Positions 35,793-61,987 of a stretch of DNA of 64,000 nucleotides are shown here, one piece after another (the stretch's first letter is position 1; every line of letters begins with the position of its first letter). The notes under the pieces are model-generated. The model had not been told where the DNA came from. It did no database searches and saw only the letters and a program-made list of their open reading frames with translations. The position numbers and the translations under genes were made by a program. Source of the stretch: Escherichia coli (GTDB taxonomy: Bacteria > Pseudomonadota > Gammaproteobacteria > Enterobacterales > Enterobacteriaceae); the NCBI RefSeq assembly GCF_024223415.1, contig NZ_CP100500.1; one strand, 5' to 3'.

Positions 35793-37250
35793 GTGTCTGA
35801 ACTGTCTCAATTATCTCCACAGCCGCTGTGGGATATTTTTGCCAAAATCTGTTCTATTCCTCACCCGTCCTATCATGAAGAGCAACTCGCTGAATACATT
35901 GTTGGTTGGGCAAAAGAGAAAGGTTTCCATGTCGAACGCGATCAGGTAGGTAATATCCTGATTCGTAAACCTGCTACAGCAGGTATGGAAAATCGTAAAC
36001 CGGTCGTCTTGCAGGCCCACCTCGATATGGTGCCGCAGAAAAATAACGACACCGTGCATGACTTCACGAAAGATCCTATCCAGCCATATATTGATGGCGA
36101 ATGGGTTAAAGCGCGCGGCACCACGCTGGGTGCGGATAACGGCATTGGTATGGCCTCTGCACTGGCGGTTCTGGCTGACGAAAACGTGGTTCACGGTCCG
36201 CTGGAAGTGCTGCTGACCATGACCGAAGAAGCCGGTATGGACGGTGCTTTTGGCTTACAGAGCAACTGGTTGCAGGCTGATATTCTGATTAACACCGACT
36301 CCGAAGAAGAAGGTGAAATCTACATGGGTTGCGCGGGGGGTATCGACTTCACCTCCAACCTGCATTTAGATCGTGAAGCGGTTCCAGCTGGTTTTGAAAC
36401 CTTCAAGTTAACCTTAAAAGGTCTGAAAGGCGGTCACTCCGGCGGTGAAATCCACGTTGGCCTGGGTAATGCCAACAAACTGCTGGTGCGCTTCCTGGCG
36501 GGTCATGCAGAAGAACTGGATCTGCGTCTTATTGATTTCAACGGCGGCACACTGCGTAACGCCATCCCGCGTGAAGCCTTTGCGACCATTGCTGTCGCAT
36601 CTGATAAAGTCGACGCCCTGAAATCTCTGGTGAATACCTATCAGGAGATCCTGAAAAACGAGCTGGCAGAGAAAGAGAAAAATCTGGCCTTGTTGCTGGA
36701 CTCTGTAGCGAACGATAAAGCTGCCCTGATTGCGAAATCTCGCGATACCTTTATTCGTCTGCTGAACGCCACCCCGAACGGTGTGATCCGCAACTCCGAC
36801 GTGGCAAAAGGTGTGGTCGAAACCTCCCTGAACGTCGGTGTGGTGACCATGACTGACAATAACGTAGAAATTCACTGTCTGATCCGTTCTCTGATCGACA
36901 GCGGTAAAGACTACGTGGTGAGCATGCTGGATTCGCTGGGTAAACTGGCTGGCGCGAAAACCGAAGCGAAAGGCGCATATCCTGGCTGGCAGCCGGACGC
37001 TAATTCTACGGTGATGCATCTGGTACGTGAAACCTATCAGCGCCTGTTCAACAAGACGCCGAACATCCAGATTATCCACGCGGGCCTGGAATGTGGTCTG
37101 TTCAAAAAACCGTATCCGGAAATGGACATGGTTTCTATCGGGCCAACTATCACCGGTCCACACTCTCCGGATGAGCAAGTTCACATCGAAAGCGTAGGTC
37201 ATTACTGGACACTGCTGACTGAACTGCTGAAAGAAATTCCGGCGAAGTAA
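35793..37250 (+). CDS. pepD: cytosol non-specific dipeptidase
   Basis: 485-aa M20-family peptidase ORF; GTG start. Confidence 0.95.
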   Translation: MSELSQLSPQPLWDIFAKICSIPHPSYHEEQLAEYIVGWAKEKGFHVERDQVGNILIRKPATAGMENRKPVVLQAHLDMVPQKNNDTVHDFTKDPIQPYIDGEWVKARGTTLGADNGIGMASALAVLADENVVHGPLEVLLTMTEEAGMDGAFGLQSNWLQADILINTDSEEEGEIYMGCAGGIDFTSNLHLDREAVPAGFETFKLTLKGLKGGHSGGEIHVGLGNANKLLVRFLAGHAEELDLRLIDFNGGTLRNAIPREAFATIAVASDKVDALKSLVNTYQEILKNELAEKEKNLALLLDSVANDKAALIAKSRDTFIRLLNATPNGVIRNSDVAKGVVETSLNVGVVTMTDNNVEIHCLIRSLIDSGKDYVVSMLDSLGKLAGAKTEAKGAYPGWQPDANSTVMHLVRETYQRLFNKTPNIQIIHAGLECGLFKKPYPEMDMVSIGPTITGPHSPDEQVHIESVGHYWTLLTELLKEIPAK

Positions 37251-37306
37251 TTATTTGATTTGCTGCCGGATGGCGTTTAATCGCCTTCCGGCAGTTTCAT
37301 CCTTCA

Positions 37307-37864
37307 TTATCCTTCGATAAAAGCCATCCCTGTAAACGTTCGTCGCGGGTTGCCACGTTCAATCTGGTGATGGAACATTCGCCGCTGCGATTTCAGCGCC
37401 GCGCTATTTTCCTGTTGCTGCTGCTCCAGCTTCCAGGCAATCAGCAATCGCGCCAGCCGTTTGTTAGCATGCTGGCTGCGCTCTGACTGAACCTTCACGC
37501 TAATACCGGATGCCAGATGCGTGGCGCGTACCGCCGAGTCGGTTTTATTGACATGTTGACCGCCCGGCCCCGACGAACGCTGCGTCTCATACCGGATCGC
37601 ATCGGATTGCTCCTGCTCATCAGCGGTAAAACGCCCAATGCCCAGAAACCAGTTTTTGCGCCCATGATGAGGCCGATACGGACTCGGACAAATCCACTGA
37701 ATAGTGCCGCACCAACTTTCGCTTAATGCCCATGCGTTATCGCCATCCAGAGAAATCAGCGCCGAACGCAGCGTGTCAGAGTAGCGGCCCGTTTCTGTTT
37801 CCAGCACCGTTACCGCGACGTCTTGTCGGGCAAAAACGACCAACAGAGAAGAACGCTGCGCCAA
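37307..37864 (-). pseudogene. prfH: peptide chain release factor homolog RF-H, N-terminally truncated
   Basis: Contains the GGQ motif ([17 protein letters not shown]) of class I release factors but lacks the normal N-terminus. Confidence 0.7.
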
Positions 37865-38042
37865 TCGGGTAGCCGCGTCCGGGGTGTAAATCTGGCATCC
37901 CCACTACGCGCTGCATGTTGGGTAAATTTGCCGTGGTGTGTAATTGTTGGATCGCTAAACTCTCGATCCACAGGTCATCAGATGCGATGGTAAATACCGC
38001 ATCGGATAAGGGACGAATATATTTGCCCATGTACCATTCCAT
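37776..38042 (-). pseudogene. RtcB-like RNA ligase N-terminal fragment
   Basis: 88-aa ORF with [16 protein letters not shown] motif typical of the RtcB N-terminus; overlaps the prfH remnant in another frame, consistent with an internal deletion. Confidence 0.6.
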
Positions 38043-38175
38043 TTATACTCGTCATACTTCAAGTTGCATGTACTGCGACTGCGTTCGTTCACCCCAGTCA
38101 CTTACTTATGTAAGCTCCTGGGGATTCACTCGCTTGTCGCCTTCCTGCAACTCGAATTATTTAGAGTATATAAAT
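38038..38175. repeat. ERIC (enterobacterial repetitive intergenic consensus) element
   Basis: Contains ATGTAAGCTCCTGGGGATTCAC and the complement of AAGTAAGTGACTGGGGTGAACG, the central inverted repeat of ERIC, within a longer imperfect palindrome. Confidence 0.7.
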
Positions 38176-38347
38176 ATAAAAATCAGGAAATGGCAGACGA
38201 ATCCAGGGCAAGAAAAAAAGAATTAATCCTGGAAAGGTCTGCAAAGAGTCATTGATAAAGGATTTGTCATGATTTACCTCCTTGCAGTTTGTGGAATAAG
38301 AAAACGCGCACATACCAGGCGGGCGTTATTTTCATTGCAAGCTGGAT

Positions 38348-38800
38348 TTAATGTTGCGGTTTATATCGCATATAAAAATTAGTAAACCACGCTCCCCGGC
38401 ATTCAACGCGCTGCTGCTTAACTGTCTGAAAACCATAACGTTCAAAAAAGGGTTTTGCGGTTATGCTGGCGTCCACCGTAAGTTCGGATTCAGACTTAAT
38501 CACAGGTTTTAACAAAGCGCTGGCAACCCCACGGCGGGTGTATTCAGGGTCAACAAATAACATATCGATATAGTGTTCAACGCAGGTAATAAAGCCGACC
38601 AGTTTTGCATTAATGACTGCAACCCGCACTTGTGATTTCGCGAGTTTATCCTTCCAGCGAGATTCGTCAATCTGCGCCCAGGCGGCAATTTGTTGTGGTG
38701 AATAATGCTGACTGGCGGTCATCATAACCGCTCTAATGAAAATAGCGCATAGTTGCTGAAAATCGCCAGGCTGATAGTTTCTTATTTGTATGTTATTCAT
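38348..38800 (-). CDS. yafP: GNAT-family acetyltransferase
   Basis: 150-aa ORF; start ATG overlaps the dinB stop in an ATGA junction. Confidence 0.85.
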
Positions 38801-39922: not shown

Positions 39923-40690
39923 TTAGCGCGTTCGCTGCGAAAGCACCTGCTGCTTATCCAGCTTTTGCACCAGCGGCTGCACCACTTTATCCCCATGCTG
40001 ACCAAAGTATTGATACAGCGTATCGGACGCACTTTTGGTCAACACCATAATCTCAATACGCCGATTGCCCGCGCTTTGCGGATTTTTGGCATCCAGCAGC
40101 ATCTGGTCCGCCATTGCGCTTACCTGCATCACTTTATCTTCCGGCATTCCGGCCTCTTCCAGCACCCGACGAGCCGAAAGCGCGCGGTCACCCGAAAGGT
40201 TCCAGTTGTTGTAGATATTGTTTTTGTAGGCCATCGCATCGGTATGCCCGGTAATAATAATTTTATTATCGAGCGAGTCGAACACTGGCGCTAACTCCAC
40301 CAGCAGCGTTTTAAAGAACGGCATAATCTGCGCGCTGCCGCGTTCGAACATATTGCGATTCTGGTCGTCTTTAATCAGCACGCGTAATCCCTGCGGGACA
40401 ATCTCCATCTCCAGATTCGCTTCCATATGCGCATCACGGGCAATGGTGTTGATACTGGTTGCCAGCTCACCAAGCTCGGTGGCGGATTTCTTCTTCAGCA
40501 GCGCCGTTTTCTCGTTGACGTCGCGCGCTTTTTTCTCCGTCTCTTCCGGCACCGCCACGGTGGCAGGTTTTGGCGGATGAGACGGGCTGATTTTATTTAA
40601 CGGCGACAACCCGCCACCGTTGAAAATCGACTGCCCGTGCAGCGCGGCGATAATGCTTTCACGCTCGGATTTACTGACGCTGTTGACAAT
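39923..40690 (-). pseudogene. lafU: MotB-like stator protein remnant of a lateral flagellar (Flag-2) system
   Basis: C-terminal OmpA/MotB-like domain is intact, but the N-terminal membrane segment is replaced by read-through into the antisense of lfhA. Confidence 0.6.
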
Positions 40691-42392
40691 CAACTTTATC
40701 GTCGTCACCAAAGGGGCCGAGCGTATTTCCGAGGTTTCTGCCCGCTTTACCCTGGACGCGATGCCCGGCAAACAGATGGCGATTGACGCCGACCTTAACG
40801 CCGGGTTGATCAACCAGGCGCAGGCGCAAACCCGGCGTAAAGATGTCGCCAGCGAGGCCGATTTCTACGGCGCGATGGACGGGGCATCGAAGTTTGTGCG
40901 CGGGGATGCCATCGCCGGGATGATGATTCTGGCGATCAACCTGATCGGCGGCGTCTGTATCGGGATCTTCAAATACAACCTGAGCGCCGATGCCGCCTTC
41001 CAGCAATATGTGCTGATGACCATCGGCGACGGCCTGGTGGCGCAGATCCCTTCCCTGCTGCTCTCCACGGCGGCGGCGATTATCGTCACCCGCGTCAGCG
41101 ACAACGGCGATATCGCCCATGACGTGCGCCACCAGCTGCTGGCAAGCCCGTCGGTGCTCTACACCGCCACCGGGATCATGTTCGTGCTGGCGGTGGTGCC
41201 GGGGATGCCGCACCTGCCGTTTTTGCTGTTCAGCGCCCTGCTTGGCTTTACCGGCTGGCGGATGAGCAAACGCCCGCAGGCGGCGGAGGCGGAAGAGAAA
41301 AGCCTCGAAACGCTGACCCGCACCATCACTGAAACCAGCGAGCAACAGGTCAGTTGGGAAACCATTCCGCTGATCGAGCCCATCAGCTTAAGCCTCGGCT
41401 ACAAACTGGTGGCGCTGGTGGACAAAGCGCAGGGCAACCCGCTCACCCAGCGTATTCGCGGCGTACGGCAGGTGATATCCGACGGTAACGGCGTGCTGCT
41501 GCCGGAGATCCGCATTCGGGAAAACTTCCGCCTTAAGCCGAGCCAGTACGCCATTTTCATCAACGGTATTAAGGCTGATGAAGCGGATATTCCGGCGGAT
41601 AAACTGATGGCCCTGCCCTCCAGCGAAACCTACGGCGAGATTGACGGCGTGCTGGGGAACGACCCGGCGTACGGGATGCCGGTCACCTGGATCCAGCCCG
41701 CGCAGAAAGCGAAAGCGCTGAATATGGGGTATCAGGTGATCGACAGCGCCAGCGTGATTGCCACCCATGTGAACAAGATTGTCCGCAGCTATATTCCTGA
41801 TTTGTTTAACTATGATGACATCACGCAGTTGCATAACCGTTTGTCGTCGATGGCACCGCGCCTGGCGGAGGATTTAAGCGCGGCGCTCAATTACAGCCAA
41901 TTGCTGAAAGTGTACCGGGCGCTGCTGACCGAAGGCGTTTCCCTGCGCGATATCGTCACCATCGCCACCGTGCTGGTCGCAAGTAGCACGGTGACCAAAG
42001 ATCATATTCTGCTGGCAGCTGATGTGCGCCTGGCACTGCGGCGCAGCATTACCCATCCGTTCGTTCGCAAGCAGGAGCTGACGGTGTATACGCTGAATAA
42101 TGAGCTGGAAAATCTGCTGACCAACGTGGTGAATCAGGCGCAACAGGGCGGGAAAGTGATGCTCGACAGCGTGCCGGTCGACCCGAATATGCTCAACCAG
42201 TTCCAGAACACGATGCCGCAGGTAAAAGAGCAGATGAAAGCGGCGGGGAAAGACCCGGTGCTGCTGGTGCCGCCTCAGCTGCGCCCTTTGCTGGCGCGTT
42301 ATGCAAGGTTGTTTGCGCCGGGGCTGCATGTGCTGTCGTATAACGAAGTGCCGGATGAGCTGGAGTTGAAGATTATGGGGGCGTTGATGTAG
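40683..42392 (+). pseudogene. lfhA: FlhA-family export-gate remnant lacking the N-terminus
   Basis: Homology to FlhA starts at about residue 130 of the family (FIVVTKGAERISEVSARFTLDAMPGKQMAIDADLNAG); no proper start or promoter. Boundary approximate. Confidence 0.65.
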
Positions 42393-42605
42393 GCATGATA
42401 AGACGCGTCAGCGTCGCATCAGGCATCGGTGCATAACCGCCGGATGCGGCGTGAACGCCTTATCCGGCCTACCGTTCAGGCGCAGGTTTGTAGGCATTAT
42501 AAGATGTGCCAGCGTCGCATCAGGCATCCGCGCACAATTGCCGGATGCGGCACAAGTTTGTAGGCATGATAAGACGCGCTAGCGTCGCATCAGGCATCTG
42601 CGCAC
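42393..42605. repeat. REP/BIME array (about four REP units)
   Basis: Repeated GCCGGATGCGGCG and CAGCGTCGCATCAGGCA units in alternating orientation. Confidence 0.8.
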
Positions 42606-43184: not shown

Positions 43185-44131
<947 letters not shown>

Positions 44132-53147: not shown

Positions 53148-56100
53148 TTATTTTTTATCGGCATCTTTTTTATCATCACCTTTAAATTTATCTACCGCTT
53201 CACTAGAAGTCATGTCAGTAATATAATCTCCAAATGCATTTTCAGGCACAAAGGGCAATTTACCCAAAGTTGCACCTAATAATTCCTCCGCTCCTGTATC
53301 AGCAGCAGCATAAACACCAGATTTAAAATCCCCTCCCTTACTTAAAAATGACAATCCCATTTTCAAAGCTATTTTCTCAACAAACGTTTTTCCCGCTCCC
53401 CAAGAACCACCTAAAGCACATAGCGCCAACTCGGATTTATCCGGCATCTTATGATCAGACATATAGTCAGTCGTAGCAACCGCACCACATGAACTAAGAC
53501 TTCCAATTGCTATCTCCCCCCATGTAAGAGTCCCCCCTTCTAATGCAGCCGCACTTGCTACTGGCTCGGTAAATACTACTCCGGCAATAACAGGAGGCAG
53601 TAAAGCCCATCCTTTTACATAATCGTCTAATGGATTATACACTCCACGCATACTTGAAAAATCATCCAACGCTTTAAATTTTTCTTCATCTGACAGGTTC
53701 GGGGCGAATCCAACATTAGCCCCCTGCATAGTGTTATAATAATTAGTTCCAAATATCATTTGCGGCGTTACATTAGCTAACCCCAACGGATCTATATGTT
53801 CAATAGGATTGAGTGGGTACTGGTAAGGATTTAATCCTCCTTCCAGCCCAATCGGGTCCTGGGTGATATACCGTCCCTGCAACGGGTCATAGTACCGGTG
53901 ACGGTTGTAATACAGCCCCGACTCCTCATCATACTGCTGTCCCGGCAGACGGTACGGCTGTTGCAGGTGCTGCGCGCTGGTTTCGCCCAGCAGGTTTCCC
54001 CACTCGTCATACTCCCCCTGCCACGCCGTTTCCCCTTCCGGGCTGATGAGCGCCTGCGGCAGTCCCCGGTGGTCGCAGTGGTAAAGATGAAGTTTCCGCT
54101 CCGGGATGTATTCCGCCTCCAGCTGCGCGGCCATCTGCTCCGCCGTCAGCCCGCACTGCGCAAGCCATGCCTCACTCTCCGCACTCACCGCTCCCGCGCG
54201 CAGTTCCCGCTCCAGCCTCCCCAGCATCACCGACAGCTCCGCCGGTAGCGTCACACCCGTGTCCTCTTGCAACACCTCCGCCAGGCTCCGGTGCCGCGCC
54301 TTCGCCTGTTCGCCATTCTCTGTTTCGATTCTCAGGAGCGGCGTGAAGCTCCCCGGCTGGTATACCGTCTGGATACGCGTGGTGCCGGTCTGTATCGTCG
54401 TCAGCCTGTCGCCGTCCCACCCGTACCATGTCACCTCCGGTTTACGCGACAACGACATCCACCCCGTCAGGTCACGCTCCCGCCGCCATACCCGTTTTCC
54501 CGTCCGGCGGCCCAGCGGGTCATAGAGGTAACGGCTCTCCACCTGTGGTTCGCCGTGCTGTATCCGCGTGTAGAACACCAGGCGGTGCTGGCTGTCGTAG
54601 TGGTAGTGGTGGGTCCGCTCGTCGTGCATCCGGATAACCCCTTCCGGGATGCGGTCCGTCTTCTCCGCCAGCCTGCCGTATTCATCGTGGCGGTAGACAT
54701 AGTGCGCATCTTCCGCGATGCGGTTATCCGGCCACGCCGTGAGCGTGCTGTCCGGGTGCAGTTCCGGGTCCGGCAGCCGGTTTCCCGCCGGGTCTGTTGC
54801 ATACGGGATATCGATATCCAGGTTCGCCGCCGTGGTGTGGACGCCCGTCAGCCTTCCCGTGTCACTGTAACGGTACTCCCGGCTCTCCTGCGGGCCGCTG
54901 ATGCGGATTAGCTGTCCGTTGTCGTTCCAGTCGTAGTCACGGTCAAGCTGCGGGAGGTTCAGGTGCCTGCTCCGGAGCTGGCCGCTGGTATTCCAGGCGG
55001 TGGCAAGTTCATATGCCTCCCCGCCGAAGCTGCGGGCCGTCTCACGGTGCAGCCGGTCCCGCGTGTACTCGACCAGTGGCGTTCCGCCCAGCTTCATCCC
55101 CGCAAGATAACCGCTGCCATACGTCAGCCACTCTACCGGCGGCAGACCGTCCGGCTCCTGACGGGTCGCCAGTCCCTGTTCGCTGTACGCGTGCCCCGTC
55201 TCATGCTCCCACAGCATCTCCCCCGTCTCCGGGTTCTCCACCGTCTGCCGTTCGCCCGTCAGGCGGCCTTTATCGTCATAGCCGTAGTGGACCGCCACAC
55301 GGTGGCCTTCACTGGTATGGCTGATGGTGGTTAACCACCCGTGCTCATCATACTGCCACTGCTCCGCCGGGTCGCCGTTCACCGTCCGGTGCGTGATGCG
55401 GTCCGACGCATCGTAATGCCAGAGGGTGATAAGTCCCTCATCTTCACTCTGCGTGAGTTTTCCGGTCAGGTCATAGTGGTAACGTTGCGTCCGCCCGTCA
55501 AAACCGCGCTGTTCAGTCAGCCTGTCCACCGGGTCATACCGGAACGTGGACTGGCTGCCGTTCTCGTTGGTCAGCACGGTGATGCGCCCGGCAGCGTCAT
55601 ACCCCATGCTGCGCGTAAGACCGCCTTCCGTCACACTCACCGGACGCCCGCGTTTATCATATTCGATGGTGCTGCATTTACCGTCCGGTGATATCGTTGC
55701 TGTCAGGTCGCCTGCGGCGCTGTACTCATAACGGATTTCACGCCCCTGCGCATCCTTCTGACTGACCAGTTGCCCACGCGGGTTATAACTGCTGTAAGTG
55801 CTGATGCCTTCTTCCCGGTGAACGGCGATTTGTTGACCGTACCGGTCGTACTCATACCGCGTCGTGTACCCCGAGCAGTCCGTAAAGGCCAGCAGTTGAC
55901 CGTAACGGCTCCATGCCATCTGTTTTGTACTGCCCGTCGCATCCTCTATCCCTGTCGGCAGCTCACTCGCCGGGTCATCATAGCTGTAACTCGTCGTCTC
56001 ACCGCTGCGTGAGGTCTCCGCCGCCAGCCTTCCCTTCTCATCATACTCCCGGCTGCTGCGAAGCCCGTCCGGGTACGTCACCGACGTCACCTGCCGCTGG

Positions 56101-57536
56101 CTGTTATAGCCATACCGTACCGTCCTGCCGTCCGGCCCCGTCACCGCCGTCACCGCACCCGACGCCATATGCAGGCTGTACTCCGTCCGCTGCCCCGCCG
56201 CATCCGTCTGTGCCTTCAGCCTCCCCGCCTCATCATACTCGCTGCGGGTGATGCTCCCGTCCGCATGCTCCTTCTTCACCACCCGCTTCAGGCCGCCTTC
56301 GCCCTCCGTGTACAGCACCTCCCGCCGGTTCAGGCTGTCCGTGATGGTCACACGGTCCTGCCCGTACTCAAAGCGGTAGTCCAGCCCCTCCGGGTTGACC
56401 TGCTCCGTCACCCGACCGGTATCATCATACCGGTAGCGGCTCTCCGGCCTCCCTGCATAATGGTGCGCCACCATCCGCCCCGCGTGCTCCGCATCATAAG
56501 TAAACCCGCGCACCTGCGTCCCGCTGCGGTCATACACCGCCCGCAGTTCTCCGCTGGCCGTGTACGTGTAGCGCGCCAGCGGCGCAGTCGGCTGTTCATC
56601 CGGGTATGCCGGGTCGTGTGTCAGCCACACCGCCTCCAGCCGGATACCGTTATCGGCACCGTACTCTGTACCGGTGGGCAGCGTGTCGGGGAAAACCTGA
56701 GAAGAGGAAACAGAACGGGGACTGGCCGGGGAAGATAAGGAAGACTCGCGCTGTTTACGGAAGGCTTCCGCCCGCTGCGCCTGTGTGGTCAGCGCCAGGT
56801 GAAAACGGCGGCCCGCGCCGTCCGTCACCCCCGTCACCGCGCCCGCCACGTCACCCTCCGCCGCCCTGTGAAAGGCCAGCGTCCGACCAAAGCCATCCAC
56901 CACGCCCGTCAGCACCCGGTATGCGGGCGGCTCCGGCGGCAGCACCTCGTCCGCCTCCGGCACCCGCTCCGGCCAGCTGAGCACCAGCCACTGCCCGGTT
57001 GTGCTGACAGCCATCATATAGGTGTGTGGACTCAGACGGACCGCTTCCGGCAGCGCCCGCCAGAGCCGGGCCAGCGGGTGGTCTTTGTGTTGTTTCAGCA
57101 CCCCACCCCTTGCCAGCCAGAGTGACTCGCTGCGGCTGTAGCTTATCTCGCCGGGAAACAGCGGCTCAAAGTGAATGCTCCTGCCGCCGTTGTCGTTGAG
57201 TATCAGTTCCCGCTCATGAATCTGTAAGCGGATATCAAAGGGGGCTTTCCAGCCGGGGCCAAACACCCCCACCGGCGCGGGCGTCCTGGTCCGGTAACTG
57301 CTGTAGGCACGGGAAAGAATGAACGGCAGCGGGCCGGGCAGCGCAAGGTCCGTCTCGCCCGGCAGCACCTTCGCACCCAGTAGCGGGTTCACCGGGTTAG
57401 CATAGGTAATCCCTCCCGGACACACCGAGCAGGCCACTCCCGTCGGCGCACCTATCAGCACCCCCGCTGAACCCTGCACAATATCCAGTCCCTTGCGGGT
57501 CATATCACCCTGCCGCGCCGCCGGTTTTCCGCCCAT
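53148..57536 (-). CDS. rhs: Rhs-family polymorphic toxin with N-terminal PAAR-like motif and variable C-terminal domain
   Basis: 1462-aa ORF: N-terminus [12 protein letters not shown], long YD-repeat core, core-terminal PxxxxDPxGL motif (DPIGLEGG...IDPLGL), then a 209-aa low-GC extension. AAGGA ribosome-binding site. Confidence 0.9.
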
Positions 57537-57611
57537 GAATCAATTCCTTCTGCTTTTAATATGGTTTATCTGGTCACTGCACCAGTTCCGTTTTGATTTT
57601 TTGCACCTGAC

Positions 57612-59753
57612 TCAAAATTGCCGCATATCCGGCATTCCGGGGGGTAAATCTTTCGGCACAGGCGCATCCGGTACAGGTTGTGTGGCACCACAGTTCCAGT
57701 TAATCACCGGCGCATCACCGTTCACATCCGACTCCCCTTCCAGATGAATGTGCGTACCATTAAGAAATATGCTTCCGTCCTTCGTCAGCACCAGCCTTGC
57801 CTTACCACAGCAGAGTTCAAGATGCTCACCGGCAGAATAAACTGCTGTTTGTCCGGTGTTTTCCTTCATCGTCTTGCCCACCGAGAAGGTGACGTTATTC
57901 CCTACATTGACGCTGTAGCCCATTCCCACCATCAGTGATTTATGCAGCCCTACCTGTGAGGACTGCAACAACGCCACCGAGGTATTCATAATGCCGCCTA
58001 CCGTCGTCTGATACGCCACACCCACCGTCAGCGCACGAATGATCCCCACCTTTTCAACCTGGTTTGATCCCACTTTGATAATCTGGTTACTGCCTACCGT
58101 TTCCACCTGGTTGACACCAACCGTCTGTATCTGATTAACGCCAATGTTCTGGATCTGGTTATTGGTAACGGTGATCGCCTGGTTGTTACCTATTTTTTCG
58201 GCATGGTTGTTTATCACATCCGTGGTGCGGTTATTCAGCACCTCGGTGTTCATGTTCTTCTGCGCGTGGATGTAGACCTGTTCTTTCCCTGTCGCATCGT
58301 CAAACTTCAGTTCATTAAACCCGCTGCCCTTATAGGTTTTCGAACGAATGGTCATCTGCGTCTTTGTTCCCGGCAGGCTGCCGGGTGTGCGGTTTTCCTG
58401 GTGGTAGGTGCGCCCCATAATGATCGGCTGGTCCGGATCGCCGTTGAGGAAGTCCACAATCACCTCCTGACCCACGCGCGGTATCGCAAGGTTACCGAAT
58501 CCGGTGCCTGCCCACGCCTGTGCCACACGGATCCAGCATGAACTGTCCTGGTTTGACGGGTTATAACGGTCCCAGTTAAATTTCACCCGCACGCGGCCAT
58601 GTTCATCACAGAAGATTTCCTCGCCTGCCGGTCCCGTCACGACGGCGCTCTGCGGGCCGTCCACCAGCGGTTTCAGCAACGGCTGTGGTCGCCATGTTCT
58701 GTCTGCCGGTATTACCGCAAAATGGTTATCCAGCGTGGTGCCTGAACCCCTGCGTCCCGGTACCGCCTGCGGCTGTTCGCCGTGAAGATCGCTCGCCACC
58801 ACCTGCCATTCCCGGTTCAGGTTCGCCTGCGGATGCCCCGTCAGCACAATTTGCCGTCCCGGCCATATCTCCGGCGAACGGCTTGTTCCGCGCGCCACTT
58901 CTGCGTTGTTGCGCCAGCCATCCATCTGCCAGCGGGCAAAGTTCTGCCCGTGGGCGCCCTTGAAACGTCCGGGGTAGTCATACACTTCATACTGTGTGCG
59001 CTGGTAATCCTGGTACTGGCCTTCCTGATCAAAACGCCCTGCCCAGCCGGGTCGTTTAAAGGTGTAGTCTTTGGTCACCACGGAAGAAGGGCGGATTTGT
59101 GCGCTGTAGCGAAACTGGCTGATGCAGAGGGTGCTTACCTCGGTACGGGTGTTCGGATTCCAGGGGATCTCAAAGGACTCCGGCAGATAACGCACGGTAT
59201 CGCACAGGACCAGGCTTTGGTCGGTACTTTTTTGCGCGTGCTCCTCATAAAAGAAGATGCCTTCCTCCGCCGCCATCCGGCACAGGAAATCGTAATCAGT
59301 CTCACCGTACTGGACACAAAACTCACGGGAAGGATGTGGCTCGCTGAACAGCGGGCTCCACTCGGTCACCCCGTTTTCCTGCAATATCGTGCCGAGGATG
59401 CTTTCGATGTCCTCATTCTGGAAGATACGGAAGTTCTGGCGCAGCCCTGTGCGCCACAGCGGCGGGCATACCTTCATGCTGTACAGCTTCTGGTTTTTGT
59501 CGTTCTCCCCCAGTTCAAACCAGGTCACCACACCTTTCACCCGGCGCTGTACGTCATCGCCCTGCCATATCGTCAGGTAGGCCATTTTGTCGAGGATCTG
59601 CTGGAATTCAAGGGAGAGAAACTGCTGGCTGACCAGAGAGAGATCGAGGGAAAAAAGCGAAGAGAGTGACTGGTTCAGATGAAAGGAGACCACCGCAAAA
59701 GCATCCGGTGGCAGGCCGTCCACTTCCAGCGTGAAACGTAATCCGGTTGACAT
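57612..59753 (-). CDS. vgrG: type VI secretion spike protein VgrG
   Basis: 713-aa ORF recognised as VgrG from the N-terminal sequence and size; C-terminal repetitive (beta-helix-like) region. Confidence 0.9.
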   Translation of the reverse strand: MSTGLRFTLEVDGLPPDAFAVVSFHLNQSLSSLFSLDLSLVSQQFLSLEFQQILDKMAYLTIWQGDDVQRRVKGVVTWFELGENDKNQKLYSMKVCPPLWRTGLRQNFRIFQNEDIESILGTILQENGVTEWSPLFSEPHPSREFCVQYGETDYDFLCRMAAEEGIFFYEEHAQKSTDQSLVLCDTVRYLPESFEIPWNPNTRTEVSTLCISQFRYSAQIRPSSVVTKDYTFKRPGWAGRFDQEGQYQDYQRTQYEVYDYPGRFKGAHGQNFARWQMDGWRNNAEVARGTSRSPEIWPGRQIVLTGHPQANLNREWQVVASDLHGEQPQAVPGRRGSGTTLDNHFAVIPADRTWRPQPLLKPLVDGPQSAVVTGPAGEEIFCDEHGRVRVKFNWDRYNPSNQDSSCWIRVAQAWAGTGFGNLAIPRVGQEVIVDFLNGDPDQPIIMGRTYHQENRTPGSLPGTKTQMTIRSKTYKGSGFNELKFDDATGKEQVYIHAQKNMNTEVLNNRTTDVINNHAEKIGNNQAITVTNNQIQNIGVNQIQTVGVNQVETVGSNQIIKVGSNQVEKVGIIRALTVGVAYQTTVGGIMNTSVALLQSSQVGLHKSLMVGMGYSVNVGNNVTFSVGKTMKENTGQTAVYSAGEHLELCCGKARLVLTKDGSIFLNGTHIHLEGESDVNGDAPVINWNCGATQPVPDAPVPKDLPPGMPDMRQF

Positions 59754-59962
59754 AGCAACCTCCGGGGTTAAGGAAAAACAGACAGTTCACTGTTAAAGCG
59801 GCTGTGACAGTACAGTGTTACGCTTGCGTTCAGGCACGCTACCGCCGAAGTTTCCGGCAGCCGCCATCTCCCGTGAACGTAACCCCTTACTGACAACCTT
59901 TCTTTCTACGGCGTAATACAAAAACAGCATCCGGCCTGATAGCCGGATGCTGTTGGCTTAAC

Positions 59963-60481
59963 TTATGCTTCCAGCGGTGCGCGCCAGTCGTCGGCACCGG
60001 AGGTGCCAGATTTGACGTGTTCCCATTCAATTTTGCGGTAGGCCAGTGAAACTTCGAGCAACTGGGTGAACTCGCGTTTCGCCGGGTCCTGGCAATGCGG
60101 CATATGCAGTTTCATATCGACAATCGTCGAATCAGTCAGGCGGGTAGTGAAATAATGCTCCTGTTTGCCTTCCACAGAGGTACGCCACCAGTGAAGTTCA
60201 GTGGTTGGCAGCATTTCGCCGGAGGCCAGTGCGTTGTACATCAGCGGAACCGCTTTGTTCAGCGCCACGGTAAAAATGAAAGGCTTGTGAGCACGCTGAC
60301 CCGCAGGCTGACCGGACTGAGGATCGGTCGGGACAGTAACGTTATGCAGGAATTCCTGCACCAGCATCTCGTCTTCGTGCCCCTGCACATAGATGTTGCC
60401 GACAGAATCAGCGGTAAATGCACCTGCAGTAATATTTCCCTGGGTCTGACCAGTGATGGAGATATAACACGGTGTTGGCAT
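59963..60481 (-). CDS. hcp: type VI secretion tube protein Hcp
   Basis: 172-aa ORF recognised as Hcp from the translation; directly upstream of vgrG. Confidence 0.9.
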   Translation of the reverse strand: MPTPCYISITGQTQGNITAGAFTADSVGNIYVQGHEDEMLVQEFLHNVTVPTDPQSGQPAGQRAHKPFIFTVALNKAVPLMYNALASGEMLPTTELHWWRTSVEGKQEHYFTTRLTDSTIVDMKLHMPHCQDPAKREFTQLLEVSLAYRKIEWEHVKSGTSGADDWRAPLEA

Positions 60482-61177
60482 TTGTAAACTCCTTGTTAAC
60501 GTGGTTAATTACTACTTACAATGACCTGCCGTTAATCCCAGACAGGCAGATGCAGCTCACTTCACGGAACCGCATCATTTTTCAGTATTTTTTACATACA
60601 AACCGAGCTAGAATTTACGGTTGTCGTAAAAACTATTTTTAAAATCATTAAATCTCTTATTCAGCAATAACTTAATAATATATATCTGGATAACCATACC
60701 CAACTGTTCAAAGTCCGTATTGCCTCCATAAAATGGCCAAAGCTGAATCATGAATAAATATTGTATTTATCCTTTCTGAATTATCATTTTGATAATTTTT
60801 GAGATATTCCTTAAAAATACCCACTTAATCAATCACAAAACAAACATATAAACAAGCAATCATTAGATTAGCTTATGTTTAATAAAATTATTATATAATT
60901 CAATAAGATGCATAAAAAACTCTATATTTAAATTATTGCCATAATACACCTGACGCGAATTGCACAGGTTCATACAATCTATTTAACGCTTGCAGAATAC
61001 CCCTCTTTACGATCGATAAAAAGTCCTTTTATTATTTATTTTGAAGCGTAAAATGCGGGGTGATGAAGGAGTGGTGATTTTATTTTCACCGCCATCAAGG
61101 CGGCATTTCCGATATTTTTTGCGGTACGAATATGCCGTGTTCATGGCCTGTACGAGATAACATGACGGATCACTTTT

Positions 61178-61678
61178 ATGAGCAAAAAATTTGAAGGCAG
61201 CGTCGCGCCTCGCGAGCGTATTAATATATCGTATGTCCCAAAAACAGATGGCCAGACGGCTGAAGTGGAACTTCCGCTTAACATGCTCGTTGTCGGCGAT
61301 ACCGGAAATACGCAGGAAACATCCTCACTGGATGAACGTCAGGCAGTTTCCGTTAACAAGCACAATTTCGGTGCAGTGATGGCTGAAGCAGCCATTGGCC
61401 TCAATTTTACCGTCCCCGCCACGCTGAAGGGAAGCACAACGGACGATGAGCTGAATGTGGCGCTGAATATCAAGTCACTGGATGATTTTTCACCAGATAG
61501 CGTGGCCCGGCAGGTTCCGGAAGTGAATAAATTGCTGGAACTGCGTGAAGCACTGACTGCACTGAAGGGGCCGATGGGTAACCTTCCGGCATTCCGTACC
61601 CAGCTCCAGGCATTGCTGGAAAATGAAGAGTCCCGCGAGCAGTTGCTCAAAGAAATCGGCCAGGTGAGCAATAAATAA
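61178..61678 (+). CDS. tssB: type VI secretion sheath small subunit TssB
   Basis: 166-aa ORF recognised as TssB (VipA family) from the translation. Confidence 0.9.
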   Translation: MSKKFEGSVAPRERINISYVPKTDGQTAEVELPLNMLVVGDTGNTQETSSLDERQAVSVNKHNFGAVMAEAAIGLNFTVPATLKGSTTDDELNVALNIKSLDDFSPDSVARQVPEVNKLLELREALTALKGPMGNLPAFRTQLQALLENEESREQLLKEIGQVSNK

Positions 61679-61712
61679 CCACCACTATTTCATTAAACAG
61701 GGTTATCCAGGC

Positions 61713-61937
61713 ATGACGGCACACAAAAATATCTCCGGGACATACCACCTCTCTGTTGCAGACATTCTGCAGGTGGTTTACCAGGTATGTTTCAGCCCGT
61801 CCGTTGAAATCAACCAGGATGGTGTGGCTGCGCTGATTACAACACTGGATCGCCGTATCAGTGATCTATTGGATGAGATTATCCATTTTTGTGAGTTTCA
61901 GCAGAGCGCGTCGCACTGGCAGCGCGTACTTCACTGA
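61713..61937 (+). pseudogene. diverged TssC-like internal fragment (74 codons)
   Basis: VAALITTLDRRISDLLDEIIHFCEFQQSASHWQRVL aligns with residues ~65-100 of the downstream TssC (VDSMIADIDERISRQMDVIIHAPAFQQVESFWRSL); different frame, diverged at DNA level. Confidence 0.45.
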
Positions 61938-61987
61938 CGGCGAAAAGCCGGTTTCAGAAACACAGCTAAAACAGAAGGATTTTCAGT

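Follow-up and report, generated by a model that had tools for sequence, protein, structure and literature searches.

Does the rtcB2-prfH locus in this stretch of the Escherichia coli chromosome still encode a ribosome-repair module and, if it does not, how was the module lost? Colicin E3 and CdiA-CT(ECL) cleave 16S rRNA between A1493 and G1494 and so stall the ribosome; PrfH occupies the A site of the damaged, stalled ribosome, its GGQ motif brings about peptide release, and the 16S rRNA is then re-ligated by RtcB2 (Tian et al. 2022, PMC9304027). Deletion of rtcB2, prfH or both makes strain ATCC 25922 sensitive to colicin E3, whereas the same knock-outs have no colicin E3 phenotype in BW25113, which carries a truncated operon (Maviza 2022, PMC9223846). 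The function of the intact pair is thus experimentally demonstrated, and the original prediction, in which RtcB-PrfH pairs were merely thought to act in ribosome or RNA repair, was worded in outdated terms.

Loss of the module has been described before. ‘A deletion of about 1,000 nucleotides’ was reported in K-12 MG1655 and W3110 and in O157:H7 Sakai and EDL933, reaching from the C-terminal portion of the upstream gene into the N-terminal portion of RFH, and both genes were argued to be pseudogenes (Baranov et al. 2006, PMC1586002); the K-12 deletion was also described by Tian et al. 2022 (PMC9304027). The rtcB2-prfH deletion, the protein family and the lost function are therefore already published. 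Mildly new here are the base-exact deletion ends with their 9-bp repeat, a rare junction variant, and a hint that the lost DNA was re-acquired by recombination elsewhere in the species.

Organization of the locus

We analysed 64,000 nucleotides of E. coli chromosome (the window), which are collinear with strain SCU-316 at 99.83% identity across 29334-64000. The gene order around the locus is gpt, pepD, the rtcB' and prfH' remnants, yafP, dinB and lafU. Both remnants and an enterobacterial repetitive intergenic consensus (ERIC) element lie on the minus strand between yafP and pepD, with rtcB' immediately upstream of prfH', at the locus that intact operons occupy (Table 1). The interval first singled out, 37307-38175, is bounded by the stop codon of prfH and the far edge of the ERIC element. 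We are highly confident that this region is what remains, after inactivation, of the two-gene E. coli operon rtcB2-prfH. The PGAP annotation pipeline treats both pieces as partial pseudogenes in SCU-316 (99.9% identical to the window in this comparison), AR_0085, the K-12-like strain LIM and O157:H7.

Table 1. Features of the rtcB2-prfH remnant locus, in window coordinates.
Feature	Coordinates	Strand	Basis
GC-rich inverted repeat CTGCCGGA...TCCGGCAG, between the convergent prfH remnant and pepD	37263..37294		Read from sequence
prfH remnant, codons 31-204 and TAA stop	37307..37832	-	TIGR03072, PDB 7SA4, alignment to ATCC 25922
Deletion junction, one copy (TGCCCGACA) of a 9-bp imperfect direct repeat	37824..37832	-	Comparison with intact alleles
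rtcB2 remnant, ATG and codons 1-66	37833..38030	-	NF007153, identity to ATCC 25922 RtcB2, PGAP pseudogene
ERIC element, 127-bp imperfect palindrome	38049..38175	-	Core match, fold, empty-site comparison

A promoter consensus scan found no sigma-70-like promoter in 37200-38400, and a terminator consensus scan of the same interval returned two terminator-like matches, no more than in shuffled sequences. The inverted repeat beyond the prfH stop has no T run and so was not flagged by the terminator scan. An Rfam scan of 37000-38600 gave nothing at gathering score.

On the far side of yafP, the dinB and yafP genes overlap directly at 38797-38800, with no yafN-yafO toxin-antitoxin pair between them; the pair is present at this position in K-12-like strains, O157:H7, C9, B771 and 98210. 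This is a presence/absence polymorphism of a toxin-antitoxin module next to the remnant pair.

The rtcB2 remnant and the out-of-frame fusion

The upstream piece is the N terminus of RtcB2. The open reading frame at 37776..38042 (minus strand, 88 aa) matches NF007153 (E 3.4e-29, positions 1-69 of 379) and TIGR03073 (E 3.9e-27, positions 1-58 of 356), and its NF007153 score falls well below the curated full-length cutoff (102 versus 407 bits). The 66 residues that follow the ATG at 38030 are identical to residues 1-66 of ATCC 25922 RtcB2. Beyond the junction the frame continues for 18 unrelated codons to a stop at 37776-37778, so that the rtcB' and prfH' frames overlap out of frame. Together, the profile matches and the overlapping frames bear out the description of an RtcB-like N-terminal fragment joined out of frame to a release-factor homologue. 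Catalytic residue H294, present in intact ATCC 25922 RtcB2, has been lost with the deleted interval; an H294N variant served as the catalytically dead EcRtcB2 control in published work (PMC9304027).

The prfH remnant

The downstream frame (37307..37864, minus strand, 185 aa with a TTG start) is of PrfH origin, matching the PrfH equivalog profile TIGR03072 with an E value of 2.4e-82 (275.3 bits, cutoff 166.65), although over profile positions 30-200 of 200 only. It also matches the Pfam RF-1 domain and aligns with residues 27-204 of E. coli PrfH in PDB 7SA4 chain 8 (E 2.4e-116); a further, weak NCBIfam match lies over the GGQ motif (NF006718, E 9.6e-08, 31.8 bits versus a cutoff of 100). The GGQ motif is retained, as had been noted from the sequence, and its Q aligns with Q122 of ATCC 25922 PrfH. 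The usual N terminus had also been called missing, which is right for the 30 residues lost relative to intact PrfH; much of the shortfall relative to RF1 and RF2 is native to PrfH, which naturally has no RF domain 1 (PMC1586002).

Intact prfH begins at a start codon of its own, which overlaps the stop of rtcB2 (ATGA), and encodes 204 residues, and no such complete frame is found in the window. Because the start codon and codons 1-30 both fall inside the deletion described below, we classify the frame as a pseudogene of the PrfH family and not as a functional member.

The 174 retained residues carry only two substitutions relative to ATCC 25922 PrfH, T31A and L114Q. T31A is a natural variant that is also found in intact alleles; L114Q occurs, among the alleles compared, in the window lineage only. 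Such near-identity could reflect residual constraint, and recombination with intact alleles explains it equally well.

Five nucleotide substitutions are clustered within about 40 bp (minus strand, about 37590-37625), a short way upstream of the GGQ codons, and distinguish the window lineage from almost every other allele; L114Q results from one of them. The intact allele of strain GF4-3, which lacks L114Q, shares four of the five, and for this reason the cluster looks like a recombinational import and not like random decay.

A single 1,027-bp deletion between short repeats

We aligned the locus to intact operons from ATCC 25922, CFSAN027343, D1, ST131 and others, together with a K-12-like strain. 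The comparison suggested with the original prediction thus delimits the deleted interval: within the genes the structure differs at one place only, a gap of 1,027 bp from rtcB nucleotide 199 to prfH nucleotide 89, so that the junction joins rtcB nucleotide 198 to prfH nucleotide 90. On the RtcB2 side the gap takes residues 67-379, H294 among them, and the stop codon; on the PrfH side it takes the overlapping start codon and residues 1-30. The remnants are out of frame because 1,027 equals 3 × 342 + 1. No correction of the reading frame can restore full-length proteins from the two frames, since 83% of rtcB is absent and so are prfH codons 1-30. The proposal that the module was inactivated by an internal deletion is upheld on three counts: one 1,027-bp deletion in the alignment, pseudogene calls by PGAP and the published loss of function.

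Where the deletion ends meet, the window retains one copy of an imperfect 9-bp direct repeat with the consensus T(A/G)(C/T)CCG(G/A)CA. In intact alleles, two copies lie 1,027 bp apart, the left one reading TACCCGGCA or TATCCGGCA and the right one TACCCGACA or TGCCCGACA. This footprint points to slipped-strand or short-homology illegitimate recombination between the repeats as the probable route of loss; removal of the 1,027 bp between them would have left the rtcB2 and prfH leftovers fused out of frame. Judging from the K-12 experiments, neither RtcB2 nor PrfH should be made. The strain is accordingly predicted, by analogy, to lack the only known system that reverses 16S rRNA cleavage by colicin E3 and CdiA-CT(ECL), and it would be expected to be as sensitive to colicin E3-type rRNases as K-12.

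The window allele closely resembles the K-12 pair of rtcB fragment and prfH pseudogene, which we take to be ykfJ'-prfH' in K-12 nomenclature. The two agree in locus order (yafP, ERIC, rtcB', prfH', pepD), in the 1,027-bp deletion down to its end points, and in having the full-length ERIC element upstream. They differ in the junction 9-mer (TGCCCGACA in the window, TACCCGGCA in K-12), in about 2% of flank SNPs, in PrfH L114Q, which is confined to the window lineage among the alleles compared, and in the absence of yafN-yafO from the window. The intact operon of ATCC 25922, CFT073 and Nissle 1917 (PDB 7SA4) occupies the orthologous locus and is 96-98% identical over the DNA that the window retains; in ATCC 25922, an rtcB2 of 1,140 nt overlaps a prfH of 615 nt by ATGA, whereas the window lacks the 1,027 bp.

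The upstream ERIC element

The palindrome reported at the 5' end of the rtcB fragment is indeed an ERIC element, ending 18 nt upstream of the rtcB ATG, and its exact limits could be set from strains without the element. Its core (38086-38129) matches the joined ERIC1R-complement and ERIC2 primers at 43 of 44 bases, a match made by none of 100 shuffles; the primer sequences and the definition of ERIC as a 127-bp imperfect palindrome are from PMC6066780. As a single strand, the 127 nt are predicted to fold into a long hairpin (-50 kcal/mol, z = -7.27), with inverted arms of 25 nt at 38044-38068 and 38146-38170. In length, imperfect palindromy, intergenic position (here between yafP and rtcB) and primer-matching core, there is nothing unusual about it compared with ERIC/IRU repeats of Enterobacteriaceae.

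This is the sole copy in the 64-kb window. A 1.8-kb query of the locus matched a median of six places per genome, and one listed extra place covers only query positions 621-657, inside the ERIC element. The full-length element is present at this site in the window, K-12, O157 and GF4-3; a short form missing 72 internal nt occurs in C9, B771, CFSAN027343 and HH97; and the site is empty in B2 strains such as ATCC 25922 and ST131, so that B2-type intact alleles differ from the window in having no ERIC here. The element is an unremarkable member of a dispersed family of intergenic repeats, located in the former 5' leader of the operon, and it is unnecessary to explain operon inactivation.

The ERIC element (38048-38171) also gave a sub-threshold Rfam match to RF02818, ‘Vibrio RNA AS5’ (V_AS5; 48.9 bits versus a gathering score of 96, E 3e-9). 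We read this match not as membership of that family but as a sign that ERIC-like sequence is probably included in the Vibrio family model.

Alternative explanations

An artefact of sequencing or assembly in one record would be the most trivial explanation of the apparent deletion. It is refuted by the presence of the junction in 2,688 of 5,426 independent complete genomes, seven of which carry the exact 41-nt junction of the window, and we consider its probability negligible. A more substantive alternative is that the truncated prfH frame at 37307-37864 is still translated from its TTG start and acts alone as a small GGQ ribosome rescue factor. The frame is open, it keeps the whole RF-1/GGQ domain and the C terminus, and its two substitutions in 174 residues are few; like the stand-alone rescue factor ArfB (YaeJ), it would yield a short protein with a GGQ domain. 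It is nevertheless a truncated PrfH and not an ArfB, without the C-terminal tail architecture of the latter. The native start and the translational coupling to rtcB through the ATGA overlap are deleted, and no sigma-70-like promoter was found nearby (37200-38400). The lost residues 1-30 hold a central beta-strand of the ribosome-recognition domain, so that the product would be heavily altered if it folded at all (authors' reply, PMC1586002), and knocking out the remnants has no phenotypic effect in BW25113 (PMC9223846). Other lineages, moreover, have lost a further 169 bp or gained frameshifts. On balance, a lone rescue factor is very improbable.

Still less probable is that the two remnants are expressed as one protein with a new function, the ribosome slipping by +1 on the junction's T5 run (CGU UUU U/GCC) to produce an RtcB(1-66)-PrfH(31-204) fusion. 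As read from the sequence, a +1 movement of tRNA-Phe on UUU-U would bring the ribosome precisely into the prfH frame, and programmed +1 frameshifting has a precedent in the related gene prfB. The T5 run, however, is native to intact rtcB (GGT CGT TTT TAC) and therefore did not evolve for frameshifting. It is followed by neither a stop nor a rare codon, no upstream stimulator was identified, and the fusion would contain no RtcB catalytic residue. The K-12 remnant knock-outs, again without phenotype (PMC9223846), speak against a fused product as well. We rejected programmed frameshifting on the native origin of the run and the lack of all RtcB catalytic residues, and we retain inactivation by deletion as the explanation of the locus.

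Distribution and secondary decay in E. coli

The deletion is common. Among 5,426 complete E. coli genomes, 2,688 have the contiguous junction, and 80% or more of the deleted interval is present in 2,675; about 60 fit neither count. Of the 2,688 genomes with the junction, about 2,663 carry one of four variants of the junction 9-mer, named here by their first 7 nt (Table 2). The window's variant is rare, at 7 of 5,426 genomes compared with about 1,200 for that of K-12.

Table 2. Junction 9-mer variants among complete E. coli genomes.
Variant	Genomes	Strains or remarks
TGCCCGA (window)	7	AR_0085, SCU-316, O78 strain 3, GPEC1446, NCTC10444, NCTC9112, KV7
TACCCGG	About 1,200	Including MG1655, DH1, DH10B, MC4100
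TACCCGA	1,127	O157:H7 and many others
TATCCGG	337	prfH remnant annotated as ‘hypothetical protein’ in every match listed

Remnants in other lineages have decayed further. In both TATCCGG strains inspected (035152 and STEC308), the prfH remnant is called by PGAP as a frameshifted hypothetical protein and carries an additional 169-bp deletion (alignment columns 1768-1936), which is also found in 98210. This second deletion occurs with full and with short ERIC elements and with two junction types. Secondary decay of this kind, by deletion and frameshift, points to relaxed constraint on the remnant.

With about half of complete E. coli genomes deleted and half intact, and with signs of re-acquisition by recombination, the locus offers a convenient natural case of loss and recovery of a toxin-counter-defence module. 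We regard this as a modest extension of known biology and not as a new kind of system.

Single or repeated origin, and possible re-acquisition

To address the origin of the deletion we used junction-type counts, SNP tables for 19 alleles and a chimeric query designed to find intact alleles with deletion-type flanks. Three positions vary in the junction 9-mer, exactly those that distinguish the left from the right parental repeat, and the four junction variants equal the four parental left and right 9-mers of the two classes of intact allele sampled. Random mutation after a single deletion explains this pattern poorly. It is better accounted for if the deletion recurred at the 9-bp repeats or if gene conversion drew on intact alleles, and conversion tracts ending at the heterology explain the variants as well as recurrent deletion does.

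Full and short ERIC elements occur in all four combinations with presence and absence of the 169-bp deletion, from which we infer recombination within the 2-kb locus, and the SNP tables show the locus to be a recombination mosaic. The window allele itself has three parts: a left flank common to most deleted alleles sampled, a 9-mer and proximal right flank that are CFSAN027343-like, and the substitution cluster near the GGQ-coding region, common to the intact GF4-3 allele.

The chimeric query, consisting of a deletion-type left flank and an intact continuation, recovered rare intact operons on deletion-type backgrounds. We compared these with deleted and intact alleles over an upstream region (yafP to the junction), the interior, and a downstream region (prfH 3' end to pepD) (Table 3).

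Table 3. Mismatches of intact operons on deletion-type backgrounds (mismatches/positions compared).
Comparison	Upstream	Interior	Downstream
HH97 versus C9 (deleted)	0/893		1/1150
HH97 versus ATCC 25922	31/837	5/1035	46/1149
1919D62 versus C9 (deleted)	0/893		0/1150
1919D62 versus CFSAN027343	39/891	0/1035	22/1149

The interiors of HH97 and 1919D62 belong with two different classes of intact allele, and they differ from each other at about 50 of 1,035 positions. A third genome, Z1323PEC0010, is a near copy of 1919D62 in which rtcB has since been frameshifted. The simplest reading of these sequences is that the lost 1,027 bp were restored in the three genomes by homologous recombination from two different donors. 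The alternative, that the operons are relic intact alleles, does not account for interiors that diverge by 5% while their flanks are identical, nor for switch points that coincide with the ends of the deletion.

We propose tentatively, and with more doubt than conviction, that the deletion is a dynamic presence/absence polymorphism held near 50:50 in E. coli and not a one-way loss. If so, the missing 1,027 bp would have been re-acquired by recombination at least two times, possibly under fluctuating selection by colicin E3-type toxins.

Other features of the window

Several further features lie beyond dinB. An flhA-like pseudogene fragment without its N terminus adjoins lafU (about 40674-42392, by collinearity with SCU-316) and is probably a remnant of the lateral-flagella (Flag-2) system. 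A type VI secretion cluster with an RHS core protein extends over about 53151-63878, also by SCU-316 collinearity. Its vgrG and tssD genes are annotated as several fragments in SCU-316, and the alignment of the window to that strain contains 24 gap openings; some of the fragments may be assembly errors in the SCU-316 record. Finally, two 164-bp stretches that are 90% identical (42388-42551 and 43200-43363) have between them, according to the SCU-316 annotation, the REP-associated tyrosine transposase gene rayT, which is the usual REP/BIME arrangement around RayT.
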